Part shown: positions 13,221 to 58,950 of the stretch, in pieces
Position numbering within the stretch: position 1 is the stretch's first letter
How the letters are laid out: every line of letters starts with the position of its first letter
Assembly: GCA_041651115.1 (NCBI GenBank)
Contig: JBAZJY010000001.1
Span: forward strand, 69,165 to 133,164
Direction of reading: 5' to 3'
DNA length: 64,000 nucleotides
DNA from: Candidatus Omnitrophota bacterium
GTDB taxonomy: Bacteria > Omnitrophota > Gorgyraeia > Gygaellales > Profunditerraquicolaceae
Program-made: the position numbers and the translations under genes
The notes under the pieces: generated by a model
The model's database searches: none
The model's input: the letters and a program-made list of their open reading frames with translations, nothing else
What the model was told of the DNA's origin: nothing

Positions 13221-13227
13221 TAAAAAC

Positions 13228-13345
13228 AATCTTCAGGGCAAGGTGAAATTCCTGACCGGCGGATAATGCCCGCGAGTCCCCTATAGGGGACAGATCCGGA
13301 GAGTTTCCGGAGCCGATAGCTATAGTCTAGATGGAAGAAGATAAA
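13228..13345 (+). promoter_or_regulatory. FMN riboswitch (RFN element) aptamer
   Basis: Matches the conserved RFN core (CTTCAGGGCAAGGTGAAATTCCTGACCGGCGG ... GATCCGGAGAGTTTCCGGAGCCGATAGCTATAGTCTAGATGGAAGAAGAT) and lies immediately 5' of ribBA. Confidence 0.85.
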
Positions 13346-13359
13346 AAATATTCATTTAT

Positions 13360-13407: not shown

Positions 13408-14607
13408 ATGGTATTTAACACCATTCCTGAAATATTAGAAGACCTGAAAAACGGCAAGATGGTTATTGTTGTTGATGATGCTGACCGGGAAAACGAGGGC
13501 GACCTGGTGATGCCTGCGTCTTTTGCCCGGGCAGAAGACATAAATTTTATGGCTAAGTTCGGCCGCGGCCTGATTTGCGTGCCTATGGAAGAAGAGAGGC
13601 TTGAGGCCCTTGATTTACAGTCAATGCTTGATGAGAAAGGCAGGGATCCTTTTTCCACTGCCTGGGTGATCTCGGTTGATGCGGCAAGCGGCATTACTAC
13701 CGGAATTTCAGCTTATGACCGGGCGCATACGATCGGCGTATTGATAAATCCCCAAAGTAAGCCGGAAAACCTGATTCGGCCGGGGCATGTGTTTCCTTTA
13801 AAAGCGCGCAAGGGCGGAGTATTGGTAAGGGCAGGCCATACCGAAGCAGCCGTGGACATGATGAAGTTGTCCGGTTTATACCCGGCAGGAGTGATCTGTG
13901 AGATTATGAATGAAGACGGCACAATGGCAAGGCTGCCTCAACTCATTGAATTTTCCCGCCGGCATAAACTTAAAATTTGTTCTATTGAAGACCTGATCGG
14001 GTTTCGCCGCCGCTCTGAAAAATTCGTGGAAAAATTATCCGAAACAGTCCTTCCTACGGACAGCGGCACGTTCAGGCTGATCCTATATAAAGACCTTACC
14101 AATGACCAGGAGCACGTTGTCCTGGCTATGGGAGATCTAAGCGGAGAAGGCGTGCTTGTGCGCGTGCATTCGGAATGCCTTACCGGAGACGTATTCGGTT
14201 CGCTGCGCTGTGACTGCGGCAGGCAATTGAAAAAAGCGATGCAAATGATAGAAAAAGAAGGCAAAGGAGTGATCCTTTATATGAATCAGGAAGGCTGCGG
14301 CATCGGGCTGGCGGATAAGATTAAGGCATATGCGCTTCAAGACGGCGGGCTTGATACGGTTGAGGCCAATGAAGCGTTGGGTTATAAGCCGGACTTGAGG
14401 GATTACGGCATAGGCGCCCAGATACTTGTGGACCTCGGCTTAAAAAATATCCGGCTCCTGACAAATAATCCGCGTAAGATCATCGGGCTTGAGGGCTATG
14501 GCCTGAAAGTTGTAGAACGGATGGCGCTGGAAATAGAGCCAAATCCGTCAAATTATAATTATCTAAGGACAAAGAAGGAGAAATTGGGGCATCAGTTAAA
14601 GATATAG
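13408..14607 (+). CDS. ribBA: Bifunctional 3,4-dihydroxy-2-butanone-4-phosphate synthase / GTP cyclohydrolase II
   Basis: A DHBP synthase N-terminal half (VVDDADRENEGDLV) and a GTP cyclohydrolase II C-terminal half (CDCGRQL zinc site). Confidence 0.9.
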   Translation: MVFNTIPEILEDLKNGKMVIVVDDADRENEGDLVMPASFARAEDINFMAKFGRGLICVPMEEERLEALDLQSMLDEKGRDPFSTAWVISVDAASGITTGISAYDRAHTIGVLINPQSKPENLIRPGHVFPLKARKGGVLVRAGHTEAAVDMMKLSGLYPAGVICEIMNEDGTMARLPQLIEFSRRHKLKICSIEDLIGFRRRSEKFVEKLSETVLPTDSGTFRLILYKDLTNDQEHVVLAMGDLSGEGVLVRVHSECLTGDVFGSLRCDCGRQLKKAMQMIEKEGKGVILYMNQEGCGIGLADKIKAYALQDGGLDTVEANEALGYKPDLRDYGIGAQILVDLGLKNIRLLTNNPRKIIGLEGYGLKVVERMALEIEPNPSNYNYLRTKKEKLGHQLKI

Positions 14608-14679
14608 GGACGGTTCTCAGCCAAGGAGAAAAATGTCCCCGAATGGGGACACTTTTCCCTTGGACTGAGAACCGTCCCT
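14606..14679. repeat. 74-bp near-palindromic repeat element, copy 1 (intra-operonic, between ribBA and ribH)
   Basis: AGGGACGGTTCTCAGCCAAGGAGAAAAATGTCCCC GAAT GGGGACACTTTTCCCTTGGACTGAGAACCGTCCCT. An identical 74-bp copy is at 47575-47648. Confidence 0.85.
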
Positions 14680-14695
14680 AAAGAGGGAGGACAAA

Positions 14696-15163
14696 ATGGT
14701 TAAGACCATCGAAGGTAACTTTATTGCAAAGGGTAAGAAGTTCGGGATTGTTGCTTCGCGTTTTAATGATTTTATCACCAAGGAACTTGTTTCCGGATGC
14801 GTAGATACGTTGGTCAGGCATGGAGCAGACGAATCTGACATCACGCTTACCTGGGTGCCGGGCGCGTTTGAAATACCCGCGGTTGCCGCGAAGATGTCCA
14901 AAGGGAAATCCTATAATGCTCTTATCTGCCTCGGCACGGTGATCCGCGGTTCAACGCCTCATTTTGATTATATCGCGGCGGAAGTTTCCAAAGGCGTGGC
15001 AAAGGTTTCGCAGGAATCGGCGCTGCCGGTCATTCTCGGGGTAATTACCGCGGATACCATTGAGCAGGCTGTAGAGCGCGCCGGGACAAAAGAAGGCAAC
15101 AAAGGCAGCGATGCCGCGTTAAGCGCCATTGAAATGGCCAATTTATTTGAAAAACTAAAGTAA
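14696..15163 (+). CDS. ribH: 6,7-dimethyl-8-ribityllumazine synthase
   Basis: The lumazine synthase signature ([13 protein letters not shown]...GAFEIP) is present. Confidence 0.9.
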
Positions 15164-17500: not shown

Positions 17501-18070
17501 ATGTTTACCGGGATAATCGAGGATCTGGGTGAAGTAAAAAAACTGTCGCGCAAGGGCAGGGTTACTTTAATTGAGGTCGGGATAAAGGCAGCTGGTTTTA
17601 CCGACGATGTCAAGCCCGGCGACAGCATCGCGGTTAACGGCGCCTGCCTGACAGCGGTAGATAAAAAATCCGGCCTTTTAAGCTTTGAAGCAATGCCGGA
17701 AACTTTAAGCCTTACTAATCTCGGCGCTTTAAAAATAAGAGATAAGGTTAACCTTGAGCGGGCATTAAAGCTCGGCGACCGGGTTTCCGGGCATTTTGTC
17801 AGCGGTCACGTGGACTGCATGGGCGTTATCCGCAGTAAAAGGTATTCCGGCGGGAATCTGGCTTTTGAGATCAGCGTGCCGGTCAAATTCATGAAAGACG
17901 TTCAGCCTAAGGGTTCGGTAGCCATTGACGGCATCAGCTTGACGGTCGTGGATAAGAAAGCCAATTCTTTTACCGTTTACCTGATCCCGCATACGCTTGA
18001 ACATACCACCCTTAAATTCAAAGGCCCTTCAGCCAAAGTCAACGTTGAATTCGATCTCCTTAATAAGTAG
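17501..18070 (+). CDS. ribE: Riboflavin synthase alpha subunit
   Basis: MFTGIIEDLG with duplicated lumazine-binding halves. 189 aa. Confidence 0.85.
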   Translation: MFTGIIEDLGEVKKLSRKGRVTLIEVGIKAAGFTDDVKPGDSIAVNGACLTAVDKKSGLLSFEAMPETLSLTNLGALKIRDKVNLERALKLGDRVSGHFVSGHVDCMGVIRSKRYSGGNLAFEISVPVKFMKDVQPKGSVAIDGISLTVVDKKANSFTVYLIPHTLEHTTLKFKGPSAKVNVEFDLLNK

Positions 18071-18082
18071 GCCCTGTCCCTA

Positions 18083-18110
18083 TTTACAACCCTGTATTTT
18101 CTGATATACT
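18083..18110 (+). promoter_or_regulatory. Candidate promoter (TTTACA-16-TATACT) for the repeat and tRNA-Pro transcript
   Basis: Hexamers at 18083-18088 and 18105-18110, upstream of the repeat array. Confidence 0.35.
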
Positions 18111-18128: not shown

Positions 18129-18274
18129 GATTTCGCCACTTGACGATAAGATAGCGGGGCGTGGCTCATCCCCGCAAAAAGCAGCGAGGATTTCGCCACT
18201 TGACGATAAGATAGCGGGGCGTGGCTCATCCCCGCAAAAAGCAGCGAGGATTTCGCCACTTGACGATAAGATAG
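18129..18274 (+). repeat. Tandem 60-bp direct repeats (2 full units plus a partial third), each carrying the first 14 nt of the downstream tRNA-Pro
   Basis: Unit GATTTCGCCACTTGACGATAAGATAGCGGGGCGTGGCTCATCCCCGCAAAAAGCAGCGAG is at 18129-18188 and 18189-18248. A third copy runs into the genuine tRNA at 18275. Each unit holds a GCGGGG/CCCCGC hairpin. Confidence 0.85.
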
Positions 18275-18349
18275 CGGGGCGTGGCTCAGTTTGGCTAGAG
18301 CGCAGCGTTCGGGACGCTGAGGTCACAGGTTCAAGTCCTGTCGCCCCGA
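18275..18349 (+). tRNA. tRNA-Pro (anticodon CGG)
   Basis: A manual cloverleaf gives acceptor CGGGGCG/CGCCCCG, D arm GCTC/GAGC, anticodon stem CAGCG/CGCTG with loop TTCGGGA, T arm ACAGG-TTCAAGT-CCTGT, and discriminator A. No CCA is encoded. Confidence 0.85.
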
Positions 18350-18355
18350 CTTTTT

Positions 18356-30939: not shown

Positions 30940-31308
30940 ATGAGGCTATCCAGATTCCTCCTTACGGTTTCTCTGGTTACGTCATTTTCCCTGCTTTACG
31001 TATATCAGCAGTCGGAAATCTTCCGGCTTGCTTACGCGGGGCAGAAGCGGGTAACGCGTTTTGAGGATTTGCTTGATAAGAACGCGGGATTAAAGTACAA
31101 TATAGCCAAGAATGTTTCTTTGACCCGCATCGGCAGTAAAGTTGCCGCTGACCCGGATTTTCAGATGCCTGACAGTTATAGGCTGATCAAGTTATCGCGG
31201 CCGTTGAACGGCCTTAAGGTAACGCAATACGCGCCAAAGAAAGAAACCCTGCTGTCGCGGTTGTTCGGGATAAAGCGGCAGGCTGAAGCAGCACTGAGCC
31301 AACAATAA
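30940..31308 (+). CDS. ftsL: Cell division protein FtsL-like (small bitopic membrane protein)
   Basis: A 122-aa product with one TM helix, in the canonical position between rsmH and ftsI. Its last 17 nt lie inside an inverted repeat. Confidence 0.55.
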   Translation: MRLSRFLLTVSLVTSFSLLYVYQQSEIFRLAYAGQKRVTRFEDLLDKNAGLKYNIAKNVSLTRIGSKVAADPDFQMPDSYRLIKLSRPLNGLKVTQYAPKKETLLSRLFGIKRQAEAALSQQ

Positions 31309-31608
31309 ATAACGGACACATTGGCTGAGCTAATTTTTGAGCGAGACAAGGAACGAGGACGCAGACGTAGTCTTGTGCTACGTCAAGGACGAGTGACGCA
31401 GTCGCAGCCAAAAATTAGCCAGCTCATAGTATAGATTAAGGAGAAGCCCGCCTTTCAGCCGTCTGCGGCGTTGCTCCTCCTCGGCGTAGTACTGAAGACT
31501 ACGCCTTCGTCGTCGCGCCTTGCATACGGCCTAAATTCGGGCTTCCAATGTATCCGTTATTTATTGTTGGCTCAGTGATCAATCCCTGATAACAGGTTCT
31601 ATTCTTAA
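31292..31608. mobile_element. MITE-like 317-bp element bounded by perfect 25-bp terminal inverted repeats, between ftsL and ftsI
   Basis: CACTGAGCCAACAATAAATAACGGA (31292-31316) is the exact reverse complement of 31584-31608. The interior carries several further hairpins and no ORF. Confidence 0.35.
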
Positions 31609-46873: not shown

Positions 46874-47569
46874 GTGATAACAGAAAATATCGTCAGGATA
46901 CGGCAGAGGGTTGCCTCTGCCTGCTCGCGGGCAGGCCGGGCCCCTGCGTCAGTAACACTCGTTGCTGTTACTAAGAACCGCGGAGTGGAAGAAATAAAAG
47001 CGGCCATTACCAACGGCGTAACCGATATCGGTGAGAACCGGGTGCAGGAAGCCCTTTTGAAATACCAACACCTATCACCTGACACCTATCACCTAACACC
47101 TATAAGCTGGCATCTGGTTGGCCATTTGCAGACGAATAAAGCCAAAGAAGCAGTGGGGATTTTTGACCTGATCCATTCAGTGGACAGCCGGCGACTGGCA
47201 GAAGAGATTGATAAGCAGGCGTTAAAAATAAATAAGGTCCAGGATTGTTTGATTGAGGTTAATGTTTCCGGCGAAGCGTCAAAATTCGGGGTAAAGCCGG
47301 TTGCGGCAGCCGGGCTGATAAAAGAAATATCCGGATTGAAAAATATCAGCGTTAAAGGCCTGATGACAATCGCGCCGATGGCTGATGATCCGGAAAAAGC
47401 CAGGCCGTATTTCAGGCAGTTGAGAGAGCTTAGGGATAATATCAACACGCTTGGAATTTGGGATTTGAAATTTGGAATTTTATCAATGGGTATGACCGAC
47501 GATTTTGAAGTTGCAGTAGAAGAAGGCGCGACAATCGTCAGGATAGGCAGGGCGATATTTAAAGACTAA
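46874..47569 (+). CDS. yggS: YggS-family pyridoxal-phosphate homeostasis protein
   Basis: The alanine racemase N-terminal-like fold (LVAVTKNRG ... GENRVQE ... WHLVGHLQTNK). Confidence 0.85.
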   Translation: MITENIVRIRQRVASACSRAGRAPASVTLVAVTKNRGVEEIKAAITNGVTDIGENRVQEALLKYQHLSPDTYHLTPISWHLVGHLQTNKAKEAVGIFDLIHSVDSRRLAEEIDKQALKINKVQDCLIEVNVSGEASKFGVKPVAAAGLIKEISGLKNISVKGLMTIAPMADDPEKARPYFRQLRELRDNINTLGIWDLKFGILSMGMTDDFEVAVEEGATIVRIGRAIFKD

Positions 47570-47574
47570 GGGGT

Positions 47575-47648
47575 AGGGACGGTTCTCAGCCAAGGAGAAA
47601 AATGTCCCCGAATGGGGACACTTTTCCCTTGGACTGAGAACCGTCCCT
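47575..47648. repeat. 74-bp near-palindromic repeat element, copy 2 (between yggS and proC)
   Basis: Identical over 74/74 nt to 14606-14679. Confidence 0.85.
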
Positions 47649-47658
47649 AACTAAAGAA

Positions 47659-48480
47659 ATGAAAATTGGGATTATTGGTTACGGGAATATGGGCTCGGCA
47701 ATTGCCCGGCAGCTCAAAAACAATTATGAGGTATTGGTTTTTGATAAAGATAAGGCCAGGCTTGGCAGTGCTGACGGCATAGCCGCTACGGCGAGCATTG
47801 CCGAGCTCGTGGAAAAATCAGGGATCGTGATCCTGGCAGTTAAGCCGCAGGATTTTTCCGATGCTTTGGCGGCTATCAAGGCAGTTGCAAAAAATAAATT
47901 ATTCATTTCCATCGCTGCCGGAATAAGCGCAACGTACATTGAAGATGCGCTTGGTCAGGCAAGGGTGATCAGGACCATGCCGAATATGCCGGCAAAGATC
48001 GGAGAAAGCATGACCTGCCTGGCGCAGGGAAGATTTGCTACATTAGATGATCTTGATACCGCGGAAAACCTTTTTGAATATATGGGTGAAGTCTTGGTAA
48101 TTGAAGAAAATATGATGAACCAGGCTACGGCAATTTCGGGAAGCGGCCCGGCTTACGTGTGCAATTTCCTTGAATCGCAGGGGCTTGGCCCGGAGAATGT
48201 CCCGGACGATAAAAAGGCTTATTTCCTGGATATTTTTCAGAAGGCAGCGCGGGAATTGGGCTTCAGCGAGCATGACGCAAGGCTTTTGACAAAGGCGACA
48301 TTTAACGGGACTTTAAGTTTTTTGAAACGGGAAAAAATATCACCTGCGGAATTAAGAGAGCAAGTAACTTCCAAGGGTGGTACTACTGAAGCGGCGCTGG
48401 TAACATTAAATAAAGGCGGTTCTTTGGTTGATGCTGTTAAGGCCGCGGCTAAACGGGCGGAAGAGTTATCAAGGGGGTAA
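47659..48480 (+). CDS. proC: Pyrroline-5-carboxylate reductase
   Basis: A Rossmann motif (IGIIGYGNMGSAIA) and the P5CR C-terminal domain (SKGGTTEAAL). Confidence 0.85.
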   Translation: MKIGIIGYGNMGSAIARQLKNNYEVLVFDKDKARLGSADGIAATASIAELVEKSGIVILAVKPQDFSDALAAIKAVAKNKLFISIAAGISATYIEDALGQARVIRTMPNMPAKIGESMTCLAQGRFATLDDLDTAENLFEYMGEVLVIEENMMNQATAISGSGPAYVCNFLESQGLGPENVPDDKKAYFLDIFQKAARELGFSEHDARLLTKATFNGTLSFLKREKISPAELREQVTSKGGTTEAALVTLNKGGSLVDAVKAAAKRAEELSRG

Positions 48481-52979: not shown

Positions 52980-53644
52980 GGCCGTTTCAGGTATACTCTT
53001 ACGGCTTGATGCTTGTTTTGGCTTTTATTGCCGCTACGTCGCTTGTGCTGGCAGAAGCAAAACGGCAGAAGCTTGACCATGAAGCGATCTTTAATTTTTT
53101 GTTTACAGCGCTGGTCTGCGGCATAATCGGCAGCCGGCTTTTTTATGTGCTGGAGCACCTTGGTTACTATGTAAAGAATCCGCTGGAGATCATTATGCTG
53201 CAGCAGGGAGGCCTGTCCTGGTTCGGCGGCCTGATGCTGGGCAGCAGCGCGGGAATATGGTATTTAAAGAAGAAGAAGCTCCCGATATACCGGACGCTTG
53301 ATCTGATAGTTCCGTATCTGGCGCTGGCGCAATCTATCGGCAGGATCGGCTGCCTGCTTAACGGCTGTTGTTACGGCAGGACGCCGTTTTTGCCTACGCA
53401 GATGTATGCGTCGCTGGCGCTTCTGGCGATCTACATTATTTTGCGGATGATGCAGGCAAGCCCGAAGCCGCAGGGCACGATATTTTTCTCTTACCTATTG
53501 TTATATTCCATTAAAAGGTTTACCATTGAATTCTGGCGGGAAGATAATCCGGCAGTCTTCTACGGCCTGAGCCTTTTCCAGCTCTTGAGCATCGTCTTAT
53601 TCGTCTTAGCCGCTGCCAAGCTCTGCCTGATCAAGAAAAAATAA
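52946..53644 (+). CDS. lgt: Prolipoprotein diacylglyceryl transferase
   Basis: Lgt family (GPFQVYSYGLMLVLAFIAA ... GRIGCLLNGCCYG). Confidence 0.85.
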   Translation: MEDMYPVICKIGPFQVYSYGLMLVLAFIAATSLVLAEAKRQKLDHEAIFNFLFTALVCGIIGSRLFYVLEHLGYYVKNPLEIIMLQQGGLSWFGGLMLGSSAGIWYLKKKKLPIYRTLDLIVPYLALAQSIGRIGCLLNGCCYGRTPFLPTQMYASLALLAIYIILRMMQASPKPQGTIFFSYLLLYSIKRFTIEFWREDNPAVFYGLSLFQLLSIVLFVLAAAKLCLIKKK

Positions 53645-53698
53645 TAAGTAGGGACAGAGACTACTTTTCTGCAGAAAAGTAGTCTCTGTCCCTACTTA
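53645..53698. repeat. 54-bp perfect palindrome (27-bp arms, no loop) between lgt and rluD
   Basis: TAAGTAGGGACAGAGACTACTTTTCTGC|GCAGAAAAGTAGTCTCTGTCCCTACTTA. It shares TAGGGAC...GTCCCTA termini with the 74-bp element. Confidence 0.8.
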
Positions 53699-53711
53699 TA
53701 CAAGGATATAT

Positions 53712-54770: not shown

Positions 54771-54812
54771 GATATTTAAAACTTTGATAAACAATTGAAG
54801 AAAGGGATAGCG

Positions 54813-57800
54813 ATGTTAAATAAAATAATATCCTTAGTCTTAAGCTTCGGCTTGCTCTTTCAGCAAATAAGCTTTGCGCAAATCGCCACAGAGTTAAACC
54901 TTTCAAATTACCTCTCTAAGATCAGCAGCAATATAATTCAGGAAAAATTCCGGCCTTTACACCTACGTTATTTCTCTTATGACAGCTTAAATGATAATTT
55001 TAAAATACTTCTTGATAAGGGTAGCGTAAAACAGCTGGATGATGTCAAGGCGCAGGAATCAGCTAAAACGCTATTAAGCTACTTTTTAATAGGGGTAACT
55101 CTTCCTGATGAAGCATTCTGGGTTAACTTAAGGCCTGACACAGAAGACCAGATCATAGACCCGTCTTTGGAGAAAACTGATGTCGGTAAGATTATGCTGG
55201 AAGCAGATCTCCAGCTTAAGAAAGACACTGCGCTTTTTACTTCTCCCAAGACTCCCGAAGGAAAAGAATACTGGAATAAGCTCTATAAGAAAGCGGGAGA
55301 GCTTTGCGGTAATGATAATGTTACCATTCCTACCTTAACCCGGCCCTGGATAGTCCCCGGGGAAATAATTGTCAGGGAAGCGAAAGATTCAGCTTATGTC
55401 TATAAAGCTACATTAAAGGTAATGTTAGAACAGGATTATCTTAAAGATTCCGCTACCTATAGCTTTAAAGATGAACGCTCTAAAGCGTTAAATGAATATT
55501 CTTCGCAGCTAATCCGAGAACTAATTATTCCTAAACTTACCAAAGAAGTAAATTCAAGCAAGAGGTATGCAGCCTTGCGTCAAGTTTACTATTCATTAAT
55601 TCTCTCCCGATGGTTTAAGCTGCGTTTTAGCGGCAAAACCGGCACCTACGCTTCATTGATCAATACTAAAAACCTTACCAACTTAGTTTCTCAAGAGGCT
55701 TGGTCAAAAACCGAATATTTTAAGCAATATAAAAAATCCTTTGCCGAGGGTGAATACAGCATCCAGGAGCCCGTTTATACCCCTACAGGGCAAGTTATCA
55801 GAAGCTACTTTAGCGGCGGCATAAATGTAGCCAGCAGCGCTATTAATACGCAGAATGGTGCTATCTTTTTAAATGATAATGCAAATAAACTGGGCGATGT
55901 CATTGGGGGTAGGGCGGTCCTTGATTTAAAAAGTATAAATCTAAAACCGATTGCCGTAAGCTCACCGATAACTAACCCAGACAAAGTTACAATCGAGTTC
56001 CCTATTGAGGAATGGTCTGCTTACGAAGATCAGTACGGACTTGGCTCTGGTCCAACTATTATTAACGCAGTGCCCTATGCTCTTTTAGAAGAAGTTAAAC
56101 GGAAATTCGGTAAGCAGGTTATTATTGATATATCAATATTTGATCATGAAAGTTCTACGGATGATTACGGAGGTTGGAAGGGATCATATAAAACAAAAAC
56201 AACATTGATTTTCTCCCAGGATATTGCCGATAAAATTAAAGAAGTAGTCAGAAAATATTATCCGAACGAATCTTTTAGTATTAGTTTACCTTTTCATTTA
56301 GATGAGGCTGCCATTTTAAGCTTTAAAACAACAGTCCTCAGTTTAGTAAAAAACAACCAACGAACATCGTTAGACAGCTTAATTGATTCTCTACCTCAAG
56401 GCTCCGCCGTAAGGAATGCTTTATTTAATTTAAAGCACCTCCATGGTAAGCCGACCGATGAAGCTGTTCAGCGAATAATTAAGGAAAATAATCTTAACGA
56501 CGCCGAACAGGCAGCTATTGTTCAGGTGCCTATTGTTTTACTAGCGCAGCCGGAAGTCACAATTGAATTACCTATCGATGAATGGTCTGGTAGTGAGGAT
56601 ATGTACGGGCTTGGTTATTCAACTCAGACGAACCCGATACCAAGAGGTTTTCTGGAGGAAATTAAAAGTAAATTTAGCAAGCAGGTTAGCATTGATCATG
56701 GAATATTTGATAGCGAAAATTCTGAAGATAATGTTGGGGGCTGGAAAGGTTCCTTTAAAACAAAAACAACATTGATTTTCTCCCAGGATATTGCCGATAA
56801 GGTTAAAGAAATATTCAGAAAATATTATCCTAACGAATCTTTTTTCGTTAGTTCGCCAATTAAAGATACTACAGAGGATAGCTCGCCGGTTTCTAAATTT
56901 GTAACTTTACCGGTAAACAAAGACGAGCAAGGTTTGGATTTTAGGGATGTTGAAAAAGCAATTGCGAGCGGAAGAATGGCGATTGCTGAAGTTTCGGTTG
57001 ATTGGGCAGAGAAAATAAAAAAGACTTTTCCTGATGAGGTTTATACTATTTTTATATCTCCTTTGAGCGAAGAACAAATTACAGAGCGTATGCGAAAGAA
57101 GGGTCAAGCGCGAGAGGCGGTTATTTTTGACGAGATGACAGGAAGACAGAGAGAGCGTGCCATAGAAAAACCAACGGATGAAAAGAAACAACTTGCACGC
57201 GCTCAAGCGTCAATTATAGAAATGTCTAGACAGAATGAATATGATATCGTTATTGTCAATAACGTATTAAAAGATTTAGAAAAAGATAATATTCGGTGGG
57301 CAGGTGAAGAGGGGGCTAAGGTAGTCTCGAAGTTTATGGGCGCTGTGGATAATGCCAGGAAGGATGGGAAAAAATTGATTCTGTATTCCGGCCCTTCTGC
57401 CACCGGGAAGAGCCCATTGTGGAACCAAATACAGCAGAGATATGGTGATCAATTTTCGCGTATTGTTCTTCATACAACACGCCCGATGCGAGACGGAGAA
57501 GAGAACGGAGTAGATTTTCATTTTTCTCCGGTTACAAAAGACCAAATTGAAAAAATCGGGATGGATTGGAATGACACTTCCAGTAAGCTTGTTAAAAATG
57601 GCTGGGCCCAGCAAGTAAGTCCAACAGAAGTAATTATGTTGACGAAAATAGAGAAAGAAAAAGATAAGGCGTTGGAAGCTTTTGGTGACAATCTCACGAA
57701 AATCTTACAGGCTCCTGTTGAGCAGTTAAAAGAGCTTGAGAAAAAAATTAATGCTTCTAGTCCTGTGTTAAACAGGGAGGATGATTTATATATTCCAACT

Positions 57801-58895
57801 TCTCAAGGTGAAGCCTATGATGCCGTAATGGCAACGTTAACTAAAATAAGAGGTACCCAGGAAAGTCACGGCTATCCGCTCTTTAAAACAAATATCGACA
57901 GAAATAAGGTGGAAGAGGCTTTTTCTGCTAAGAAAGCTACTCAAATAGGTTCGGTTCTTTACGGGTATGATACAGGTGATTATTCTACCGATTACGAAGT
58001 TACCGTTAATTTTAACGAGGCCAATATAACATTAACTTTTTTAAGCAGAGAAGAAAAATATAAATTAGAACGGCCTTTTAGCGAAGAGCGGGTAAGAGGA
58101 CAACTTTTTGCGATTCTTTGGAATATCGGTTGGGCCCACAAAAACATATCGTTTTCGGTTTCCGAAGAAATAGCGATTGATTCAGTAGAAAACCGCCATC
58201 TTCTTGCGGGGCCCGGTACGGATGATGAACATTACCAGGATGAGCCGGGCTATCAAGAACTGAGAGAAGCCTATGATGCAGTTATGGAAAAGATAAAATC
58301 TGCGACAGAAGCCAAGATCAATGAAATAATCAATTGGGTTAAGGAAAATCCGGAAATAAATTTCAAAATAGAAGAAGTTTATGTCCTTGGCGGAACCGGC
58401 CAGGAAGCAGGTATAGTCGGGCGCATTGACCGTGGTATTGCTGAAAAACTTGGACTTGCTTATGGAACGATCAATTTTTTAACGCAAGATATATCCAAGA
58501 AAACGGATAGAAAGAATAATAGCTCGCCGGTACGATCGATGTCCGGAAAAACAGGCGGTATTGATTTCCGTGCTTTACCGATGGCTATTCAGCCTATGGG
58601 GAGTTTTGGTAGTTTGAATTTTACGCTGCCTCAATTAAGCCAGGTGGAGCTTGAGAAAATAGATGTCGCTGCCGAGATACAACAGATCAAGAATATGGTG
58701 CAATCCGGGATTATCCCCTCCGGCGAACGAGTAAAATATCTTATTGCTGCTTGTGAACAAAAAGGGGAAATAAATTCTCAAGTGGACAACCTGTTGTTAT
58801 GCCTTACGGATATTTTTAAGCTGGAAGAAGAAAATGCTAGCGAGAGTTCTCCGGAATTAAGGGAAGCATTGGTAATTGTTGATATGCAGGCCTAA
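54813..58895 (+). CDS. Giant (about 1360 aa) secreted multi-domain repeat protein with guanylate-kinase-like P-loop segments; no confident family assignment
   Basis: The N-terminus looks like a signal peptide (MLNKIISLVLSFGLLFQQISFAQIA). Two roughly 105-aa internal repeats share stretches of identical DNA. GK-like motifs occur (GPSATGKS ... HTTRPMRDGEENGVDFHF; FISPLSEE ... YDIVIVNN). GC content is visibly lower than in neighbouring genes. ATG 54813 follows AAGGGA; the track ORF starts at TTG 54795. Confidence 0.75.
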   Translation: MLNKIISLVLSFGLLFQQISFAQIATELNLSNYLSKISSNIIQEKFRPLHLRYFSYDSLNDNFKILLDKGSVKQLDDVKAQESAKTLLSYFLIGVTLPDEAFWVNLRPDTEDQIIDPSLEKTDVGKIMLEADLQLKKDTALFTSPKTPEGKEYWNKLYKKAGELCGNDNVTIPTLTRPWIVPGEIIVREAKDSAYVYKATLKVMLEQDYLKDSATYSFKDERSKALNEYSSQLIRELIIPKLTKEVNSSKRYAALRQVYYSLILSRWFKLRFSGKTGTYASLINTKNLTNLVSQEAWSKTEYFKQYKKSFAEGEYSIQEPVYTPTGQVIRSYFSGGINVASSAINTQNGAIFLNDNANKLGDVIGGRAVLDLKSINLKPIAVSSPITNPDKVTIEFPIEEWSAYEDQYGLGSGPTIINAVPYALLEEVKRKFGKQVIIDISIFDHESSTDDYGGWKGSYKTKTTLIFSQDIADKIKEVVRKYYPNESFSISLPFHLDEAAILSFKTTVLSLVKNNQRTSLDSLIDSLPQGSAVRNALFNLKHLHGKPTDEAVQRIIKENNLNDAEQAAIVQVPIVLLAQPEVTIELPIDEWSGSEDMYGLGYSTQTNPIPRGFLEEIKSKFSKQVSIDHGIFDSENSEDNVGGWKGSFKTKTTLIFSQDIADKVKEIFRKYYPNESFFVSSPIKDTTEDSSPVSKFVTLPVNKDEQGLDFRDVEKAIASGRMAIAEVSVDWAEKIKKTFPDEVYTIFISPLSEEQITERMRKKGQAREAVIFDEMTGRQRERAIEKPTDEKKQLARAQASIIEMSRQNEYDIVIVNNVLKDLEKDNIRWAGEEGAKVVSKFMGAVDNARKDGKKLILYSGPSATGKSPLWNQIQQRYGDQFSRIVLHTTRPMRDGEENGVDFHFSPVTKDQIEKIGMDWNDTSSKLVKNGWAQQVSPTEVIMLTKIEKEKDKALEAFGDNLTKILQAPVEQLKELEKKINASSPVLNREDDLYIPTSQGEAYDAVMATLTKIRGTQESHGYPLFKTNIDRNKVEEAFSAKKATQIGSVLYGYDTGDYSTDYEVTVNFNEANITLTFLSREEKYKLERPFSEERVRGQLFAILWNIGWAHKNISFSVSEEIAIDSVENRHLLAGPGTDDEHYQDEPGYQELREAYDAVMEKIKSATEAKINEIINWVKENPEINFKIEEVYVLGGTGQEAGIVGRIDRGIAEKLGLAYGTINFLTQDISKKTDRKNNSSPVRSMSGKTGGIDFRALPMAIQPMGSFGSLNFTLPQLSQVELEKIDVAAEIQQIKNMVQSGIIPSGERVKYLIAACEQKGEINSQVDNLLLCLTDIFKLEEENASESSPELREALVIVDMQA

Positions 58896-58913
58896 AATAT
58901 TTTACTTTAAAAA

Positions 58914-58950
58914 GGGGACGTTTCCCGGTAGGGAAACGTCCCCTTTTTGT
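58914..58950 (+). terminator. Rho-independent, potentially bidirectional terminator after the giant gene
   Basis: A 13-bp perfect stem (GGGGACGTTTCCC-GGTA-GGGAAACGTCCCC) is flanked by AAAA upstream and TTTTTGTT downstream. Confidence 0.85.

Follow-up and report, generated by a model that had tools for sequence, protein, structure and literature searches.

The closest described relatives of the element discussed here are the REP and REPIN repeats with their RAYT transposases, represented by the REP/BIME sequences of E. coli with TnpA_REP and by the REPINs of Pseudomonas fluorescens. They have in common with it two short imperfect palindromes, inverted with respect to each other and forming one long hairpin; an extragenic, non-coding position between co-directional genes; and a core that also stands beside a single gene for a Y1 HUH transposase, here seen in Clostridia. 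They differ in several respects: the tag of our element is TAG rather than GTAG; few copies are visible; the part of the genome that was read contains no RAYT; an 11-nt core recurs unchanged from one phylum to another, where classical REPs are each specific to a lineage; and the host belongs to the Omnitrophota. For the RAYTs that have been studied, what determines binding and cleavage is the hairpin together with a 5' guide tetranucleotide and, in some cases, particular bases of the loop (PMC8266576).

A second comparison is with the TIRtrons (Di Nocera 2013). Their TIRYT genes stand between inverted repeats that contain GGGGWSAS, frequently dimeric and moderate in copy number (PMC3733652); the motif is also written GGGG[AT][CG]A[CG] (PMC3733652, PMC6006769). 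They are equivalent to subclass 2.1 of TnpA_Y1 (Quentin 2018), long proteins with a C-terminal HTH for which the survey found no REP-like sequence nearby (PMC6006769), and probably also to the Group 1 RAYTs (Bertels 2017), which in Clostridia have low-copy flanking 16-mers (PMC5581495). Our material resembles the TIRtrons in a Y1 protein of ~246 aa, long for the family, with a C-terminal HTH-like tail; in flanking inverted repeats that start GGGG[AT][CG].., occur as dimers and have moderate or low copy number; and in a wide, patchy phylogenetic distribution. The published motif is only an 8-mer, GGGGWSAS, as against the 11-14 nt core described below. The inner motif of the element, GGGGACAC, agrees with the TIRYT motif at 8/8 positions, and the outer core at 6-7/8 ((A)GGGACGG at 6/8 here, GGGGACGG at 7/8 in other phyla).

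The ends of IS200/IS605 elements and the PATEs offer a more distant parallel: a Y1 HUH enzyme recognises a hairpin, and insertion takes place beside a short target without true duplication. The element here differs from them in having no internal transposase, and in having identical ends rather than distinct left and right ends. Correia elements, ERIC and RUP are TA-duplicating MITEs of 100-170 bp, related to IS630-type or unknown DDE elements. These too are short palindromes at TA, lie in transcribed intergenic regions and give an RNA hairpin, whereas the element here measures 74-76 nt and has ends in common with RAYT-flanking repeats.

Two identical copies at operon junctions

The window, by which we mean the whole 64,000-nt stretch of a Candidatus Omnitrophota contig that was analysed, contains one 77-nt stretch twice, at 14605-14681 and 47574-47650, with 100% identity between both. 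The first-pass annotation had reported an identical 74-nt repeat at these two loci, a description right to 1-2 bases, and domain matches bear out its naming of the flanking genes, ribBA and ribH in one case and yggS and proC in the other. The element proper measures 76 nt and is nearly palindromic, TAGGGACGGTTCTCAG...CTGAGAACCGTCCCTA (TAGGGAC...GTCCCTA). Copy 1, a palindromic element with the form of a REP doublet (14605..14680, + strand), occupies the gap between ribBA (13408-14607; DHBP_synthase and GTP_cyclohydro2 domains) and ribH (14696-15163; DMRL_synthase), in a rib operon under the control of an FMN riboswitch that lies upstream of ribBA (13225-13346). Copy 2 (47574..47649, + strand) repeats copy 1 at 100% identity and with the same orientation; it separates a YggS-family gene (46874-47569; Ala_racemase_N) from proC (47659-48480; P5CR). 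No further copy was found in the window or in the 8.8 kb upstream of it; the copies visible in this genome number 2 in 73 kb, both intergenic.

The arms of the element, 36 nt each, are complementary at 31/36 positions around a 4-nt loop, GAAT, at 14641-14644, and the minimum-free-energy fold has 34 bp. Predicted RNA folds reach -61.4 kcal/mol for the + strand (z -10.4) and -65.2 kcal/mol for the - strand (z -11.1); the DNA folds are -36.7 and -37.4 kcal/mol (z -12.6). Inspection of the arms resolves them into smaller units. The outer core, GGGACGGTTCTCAG, forms the left arm of copy 1 at 14607..14620 (+ strand), with its inverted partner at 14665-14678; the corresponding pair in copy 2 is at 47576-47589 and 47634-47647. 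Around the GAAT loop, two degenerate cores, (A)GAAAAATGTCCCC / GGGGACACTTTT, can be read as an inner inverted pair at 14629..14656 (+ strand). Each 36-nt half of the element is then the core GGGACGGTTCT(CAG) together with a degenerate inverted copy of that core, and because the halves are mutually inverted, one strand on its own folds up as a 34-bp hairpin. The terminal 16-mer of the element occurs 4 times, against 0.22 expected.

Trivial origins were also considered. An assembly or adapter artefact is ruled out, since four data sets independent of one another (ENA, Logan, JGI and a GenBank MAG) contain the element, and also since it lies at conserved gene junctions; the Logan contigs, from the assembly of SRR8542065, break within the element, which places it in an independent data set. 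The window derives from contig k141_400606 (146 kb) of the ENA assembly ERZ27247363, and its RibH and ProC match proteins of a 'Candidatus Omnitrophota bacterium' MAG at 100% identity. A phage origin was rejected: the 16-mer matches 4 sites in IMG/VR, but these are single and non-palindromic, and were judged to be chance. Rfam at gathering thresholds gave no match for the element in the window or at 16 loci; at lax thresholds, generic miRNA-precursor hairpin models alone appeared, far under their cut-offs and non-specific.

The history of the ribBA-ribH junction can be read by comparison with relatives. In two of them, with 83% RibH identity, the spacer is 16 nt (L026) or 41 nt (L027), and ribBA ends ...GHQLKI followed by a TAA stop. 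In the window the junction reads AAG ATA TAG, then GGAC...GTCCC, then TA AAGAGGGAGGACAAAATG. Subtracting 74 nt gives ATA TAA AGAGGGAGG..., in which the ancestral stop stands at the homologous codon and the Shine-Dalgarno sequence of ribH is intact. The TA of the ribBA stop was therefore the point of entry, and the G of TAG now comes from the element: the present stop codon (14605..14607, + strand) consists of the host's TA and the element's first G. In the metagenome contig L028 (see below), the stop of the upstream gene is likewise the element's TAG. At the other junction, yggS and proC have 4 nt in common in one relative (L034, 70% ProC identity) and lie 6 nt apart in another; in the window they are 89 nt apart. 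Read against such relatives, the element at both junctions is an insertion, apparently that of a small non-coding mobile element, and these empty sites support a recently inserted repeat of REP, REPIN or MITE type, in line with the earlier likening to REP, BIME or MITE repeats.

A further relative, at 88% RibH identity, carries between ribBA and ribH a 147-nt multi-hairpin sequence (L025, 2126-2272; -55 kcal/mol, z -3.4), an insert different from the element. The ribBA-ribH spacer appears to be a recurrent landing site.

Other palindromes and repeats in the window

The gap between lgt and rluD contains a perfect 56-bp palindrome, ATAAGTAGGGACAGAGAC...GTCTCTGTCCCTACTTAT, at 53644..53699. Its ends, (G)TAGGGAC...GTCCCTA(C), are the same as those of the 76-nt element; its interior is unrelated. 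At the same junction the relative L034 has a 13-nt spacer. This palindrome probably represents a second family of the same kind. Just 3' of ribE, at 18063..18087, stands ATAAGTAGGCCCTGTCCCTATTTAC, a possible collapsed remnant of that second family, in which the ends would have been kept and the centre lost; the 18-nt match to the 56-bp palindrome, at 89% identity, is weak evidence.

Several other repeats were noted along the way. A perfect 60-nt tandem repeat of 2.7 copies occupies 18129-18288; its unit combines a TTGACG stretch that resembles a promoter with the initial 15 nt of tRNA-Pro(CGG) and a short hairpin, CCCCG, and the last unit runs into the real tRNA-Pro gene (18275-18350). The gap between an ftsL-like ORF and ftsI contains an imperfect palindrome of ~286 nt with nested hairpins (31292-31577). 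Its RNA fold is -140 kcal/mol (z -10.5), Rfam offers no credible match for it, and it may belong, as a larger element, to this general kind. At 58911-58950 a hairpin, AAAAAGGGGACGTTTCCC GGTA GGGAAACGTCCCCTTTTT, looks like an intrinsic terminator; its stem resembles the REP core (GGGGACGtTTCcC vs GGGGACGGTTCTC), perhaps by chance. Within a 1366-aa ORF (54795-58895), a 204-nt direct repeat with 79% identity (56083-56286 and 56650-56853) suggests an internally repeated protein domain.

The family and its core beside RAYT genes

When one genome per species was scanned for GACGGTTCTCAG, then 30-60 nt, then CTGAGAACCGTC, the inverted core was found at 20 loci in 12 MAGs of 4 phyla, where by our own calculation ~0.13 would be expected by chance. 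The Omnitrophota MAG STA_32 (JAQTMD01) has two 84-nt copies (L016 and L021), in mutually opposite orientations, with identical 16-nt ends and a diverged interior; at L021 the upstream ORF extends nine codons into the element. A JGI metagenome contig (L028) has one 76-nt copy with 3 differences from the window copy. All three fall within the 8 unpaired positions (P about 8e-4), so pairing has been maintained. Each of these copies has the same fold as the window element, two inverted units making one long hairpin; the fold of the half-element, weak in the window (-5.5 kcal/mol, z -2.0), is good in L021 (-12.5 kcal/mol, z -4.8). Related copies in other Omnitrophota support the earlier reading of a repeat family.

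Outside the Omnitrophota, the scan matched a Myxococcota MAG (6 loci), a Propionibacteriales MAG, and rumen and gut Firmicutes, and the core GGGACGGTTCT is present also in the palindromes of Myxococcota and Actinomycetota. Copies with the exact ends number only 5 across the public collections scanned. A scan of metagenomes with a strict TA-flanked pattern returned one locus, the pattern being too narrow for sizing the family.

The association of this core with transposase genes was found in Clostridia. The terminal 11-mer of the element, GGGACGGTTCT, matches exactly the core that stands on both sides of the RAYT gene at 5/5 Clostridial loci examined (L013, L020, L033, L035 and L036). At L013 and L020, inverted hairpin doublets with the exact 11-mer stand on either side of a 246-aa gene, whose product matches Pfam Y1_Tnp (PF01797), has a match to NCBIfam REP_Tyr_transpos below the model's cut-off, and carries the motifs HVHLL (HUH) and YIxxNP (Y). 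Because these two loci had come from the DNA pattern, the other three were picked by protein similarity alone, and all of them (3/3) have the exact 11-mer on each side of the gene. A profile of the Clostridial proteins finds E. coli TnpA_REP (4ER8) as its best PDB match. Their C-terminal 70 residues are weakly HTH-like; from this signal and their length they would belong to subclass 2.1.

The core is presented differently in different hosts. In Firmicutes it is located in the loop of a local hairpin with a 6-13 bp stem, and the stems vary by lineage: GTGTGTCA, ACTAACCA, TGCACCAA, CAGTCA, AAGTCA, GGCAC and others. Stems that differ between lineages around one 11-mer mean that the loop is conserved and the stem covaries. 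In the Omnitrophota and Myxococcota copies, the core is at the outer end of the long palindrome, without a local stem. A likeness of GGTTCTCAGTGGTTAG in L013 to a tRNA D-arm was considered and ruled out, as the flanking stem differs in other lineages.

Gene order around the Clostridial loci is conserved: ychF, RAYT and flavin reductase at L013 (1737-2768) and L020 (4337-5274), pyruvate:ferredoxin oxidoreductase and RAYT, again with conserved neighbours, at L033 (2867-3860) and L036 (2406-3330), in each case with hairpins that present GGGACGGTTCT as the loop on the flanks; L035 (2307-3276) is a further Clostridial RAYT locus with such hairpins. These loci look like vertically inherited, single-copy genes of the REPtron type. 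In a Lachnospiraceae MAG (L005, at 168, 1790, 2619 and 4187), single hairpin units, gtgtgtcaaaaGGGACGGTTCTctttgacacac, occur at gene ends every ~1-2 kb. Two of them have 30 further downstream nt in common, so that in this MAG the repeat unit extends beyond the hairpin.

The first-pass annotation had pointed to an associated RAYT. That link finds real support in the terminal 11-mer of the element, which is the core at five Clostridial RAYT loci; the 73 kb read of this genome contain no such gene. No Y1/RAYT gene was found in the 64-kb window, in the 8.8 kb upstream, or at any Omnitrophota locus read; and a search for an Omnitrophota RAYT through a list of homologues, a representative search and cluster names gave only Clostridia-like or unnamed proteins. 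The clade itself is very large, with about 30,000 representative clusters at E<=1e-3, 749 of them at E<=1e-30. Literature searches with 10- and 12-mers returned only unrelated oligonucleotides, and neither the 11-14 nt core nor its presentation in a hairpin loop was found in the literature searched.

One way to understand this distribution, which we offer tentatively and with more doubt than confidence, is that the 11-14 nt core GGGACGGTTCT(CAG) serves the long RAYTs with a C-terminal HTH (Group 1/subclass 2.1/TIRYT) as their recognition sequence throughout the bacteria. Its presentation may then vary, as the loop of a lineage-specific hairpin in Firmicutes or as the ends of a long palindrome in Omnitrophota, Myxococcota and Actinomycetota.

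Movement and possible roles of the hairpin

For the element itself, the reading that we favour, and consider probable, is that of a non-autonomous REP doublet of REPIN/TIR type, mobilised in trans by a HUH transposase of the RAYT kind. Because no RAYT lies in the 73 kb of this genome that were read, we infer the enzyme's part here, and with it a single-strand mechanism. On this account, a Y1 HUH tyrosine transposase of RAYT type would be encoded once, elsewhere in the genome; it would recognise folded single-stranded DNA via the conserved core, cut and rejoin the strand, and re-insert the element beside a TA, most likely at the replication fork. Only insertions into very short intergenic spacers would survive. 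In the ribBA case the element entered the TAA stop and regenerated a stop as TAG. In mRNA it would form a very stable hairpin within two operons, with effects on decay or translation, if any, being secondary. Some observations sit uneasily with such an origin: the architecture is unlike that of the Clostridial units, GTAG is not strict, the TA ends fit an IS630-type duplication, and the visible copy number is low. The GTAG tag of classical REPs is in fact not conserved; TAG is invariant, and a preceding G is present at 3/10 ends, about as often as chance would give.

A different perspective locates the mobilizing enzyme among the DDE transposases. The element would be a MITE of an IS630/Tc1-mariner-like or IS5-subgroup transposon, whose transposase binds the 16-bp terminal inverted repeats in trans, with duplication of TA. 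A TA stands at each end of the element and is itself part of the palindrome, an arrangement that fits both insertion 3' of a TA and genuine duplication of the dinucleotide, and this scenario is therefore the main rival. In its favor, TA...TA bounds all five Omnitrophota copies and the 56-bp palindrome, the empty ribBA site fits TA duplication exactly, and the terminal repeats are perfect across 16 bp. Nevertheless we consider it unlikely. No DDE transposase with the element's ends was found at any locus looked at; at 5/5 Clostridial loci the core on either side of the Y1/RAYT gene is identical to the element's terminal 11-14 nt; TA flanks are lacking from the copies of Myxococcota, Actinomycetota and Firmicutes; and a single-strand transposase inserting 3' of TA would give an equal apparent duplication.

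The hairpin might instead owe its presence mainly to selection by the host, as an RNA structure that protects upstream mRNA from 3' exonucleases, attenuates read-through, or tunes translation between stop and start. E. coli REPs reportedly stabilise upstream mRNA and, where they lie close to a stop codon, lower translation. The window copies and that of L028 are alike in their orientation relative to transcription, all three lie 0-4 nt from the upstream stop codon, and variation is found only at unpaired bases. The orientation argument is weak, with n=3, and proximity to a stop codon was unavoidable, as the ancestral spacers measured ~15 nt. Moreover, the same junctions in related genomes do without the element, and the host operons are unrelated. 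The full stem is followed by AAGAGGG in copy 1 and ACTAAAG in copy 2; with no U-tract 3' of it, the element is not an intrinsic terminator, the sole candidate U-tract being the marginal CTTTTCCC tail of an inner 7-bp hairpin. Host selection as the main explanation is improbable.

A stable predicted hairpin 0-4 nt past a stop codon may have consequences for mRNA decay or for termination, as reported for E. coli REPs. The likely Shine-Dalgarno sequence of proC (AAGGGG) is now upstream of the hairpin, and translation of proC may depend on the predicted folding, which would return that sequence to the neighbourhood of the start codon.

A coding role had also been raised. The element does contain AAGGAG, 4 nt before an ATG that opens an 11-codon ORF, MSPNGDTFPLD (14634..14669, + strand), closed by an in-frame TGA: the first-pass annotation was right about the letters, and its mini-ORF with a Shine-Dalgarno sequence is not supported as a feature. 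From the symmetry of the palindrome an equivalent ORF follows on the opposite strand, where a GTG start behind AAGGGA opens MSPFGDIFLLG; we judge the mini-ORF a by-product of the palindrome rather than a gene. That the element exists to encode an 11-residue peptide with its own Shine-Dalgarno sequence can hardly be credited: the ORF is retained in L028, but with three substitutions that all alter the peptide (N to G, D to V); it is absent from L021 and replaced by a different one in L016; and the Shine-Dalgarno sequence and ATG are paired within the -61 kcal/mol stem.

The element is an ordinary small selfish hairpin repeat, and its novelty is its phylum: a literature search met no report of REP/REPIN-type elements in Omnitrophota, and the present copies extend such elements to this uncultured phylum of the PVC group. 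The ribBA copy shows cleanly how an element can land in a stop codon and yet rebuild it, TAA having become TAG. A 74-nt hairpin is, moreover, tolerated between tightly coupled genes, which is relevant to operon annotation and to the prediction of translational coupling in such genomes. A core common to Clostridial RAYT hairpins and to the palindromes of two further phyla is a candidate recognition site for a very large RAYT clade; if GGGACGGTTCT(CAG) does prove to be pan-bacterial, it would be the first sign of one REP/RAYT recognition code common to at least 4 phyla.
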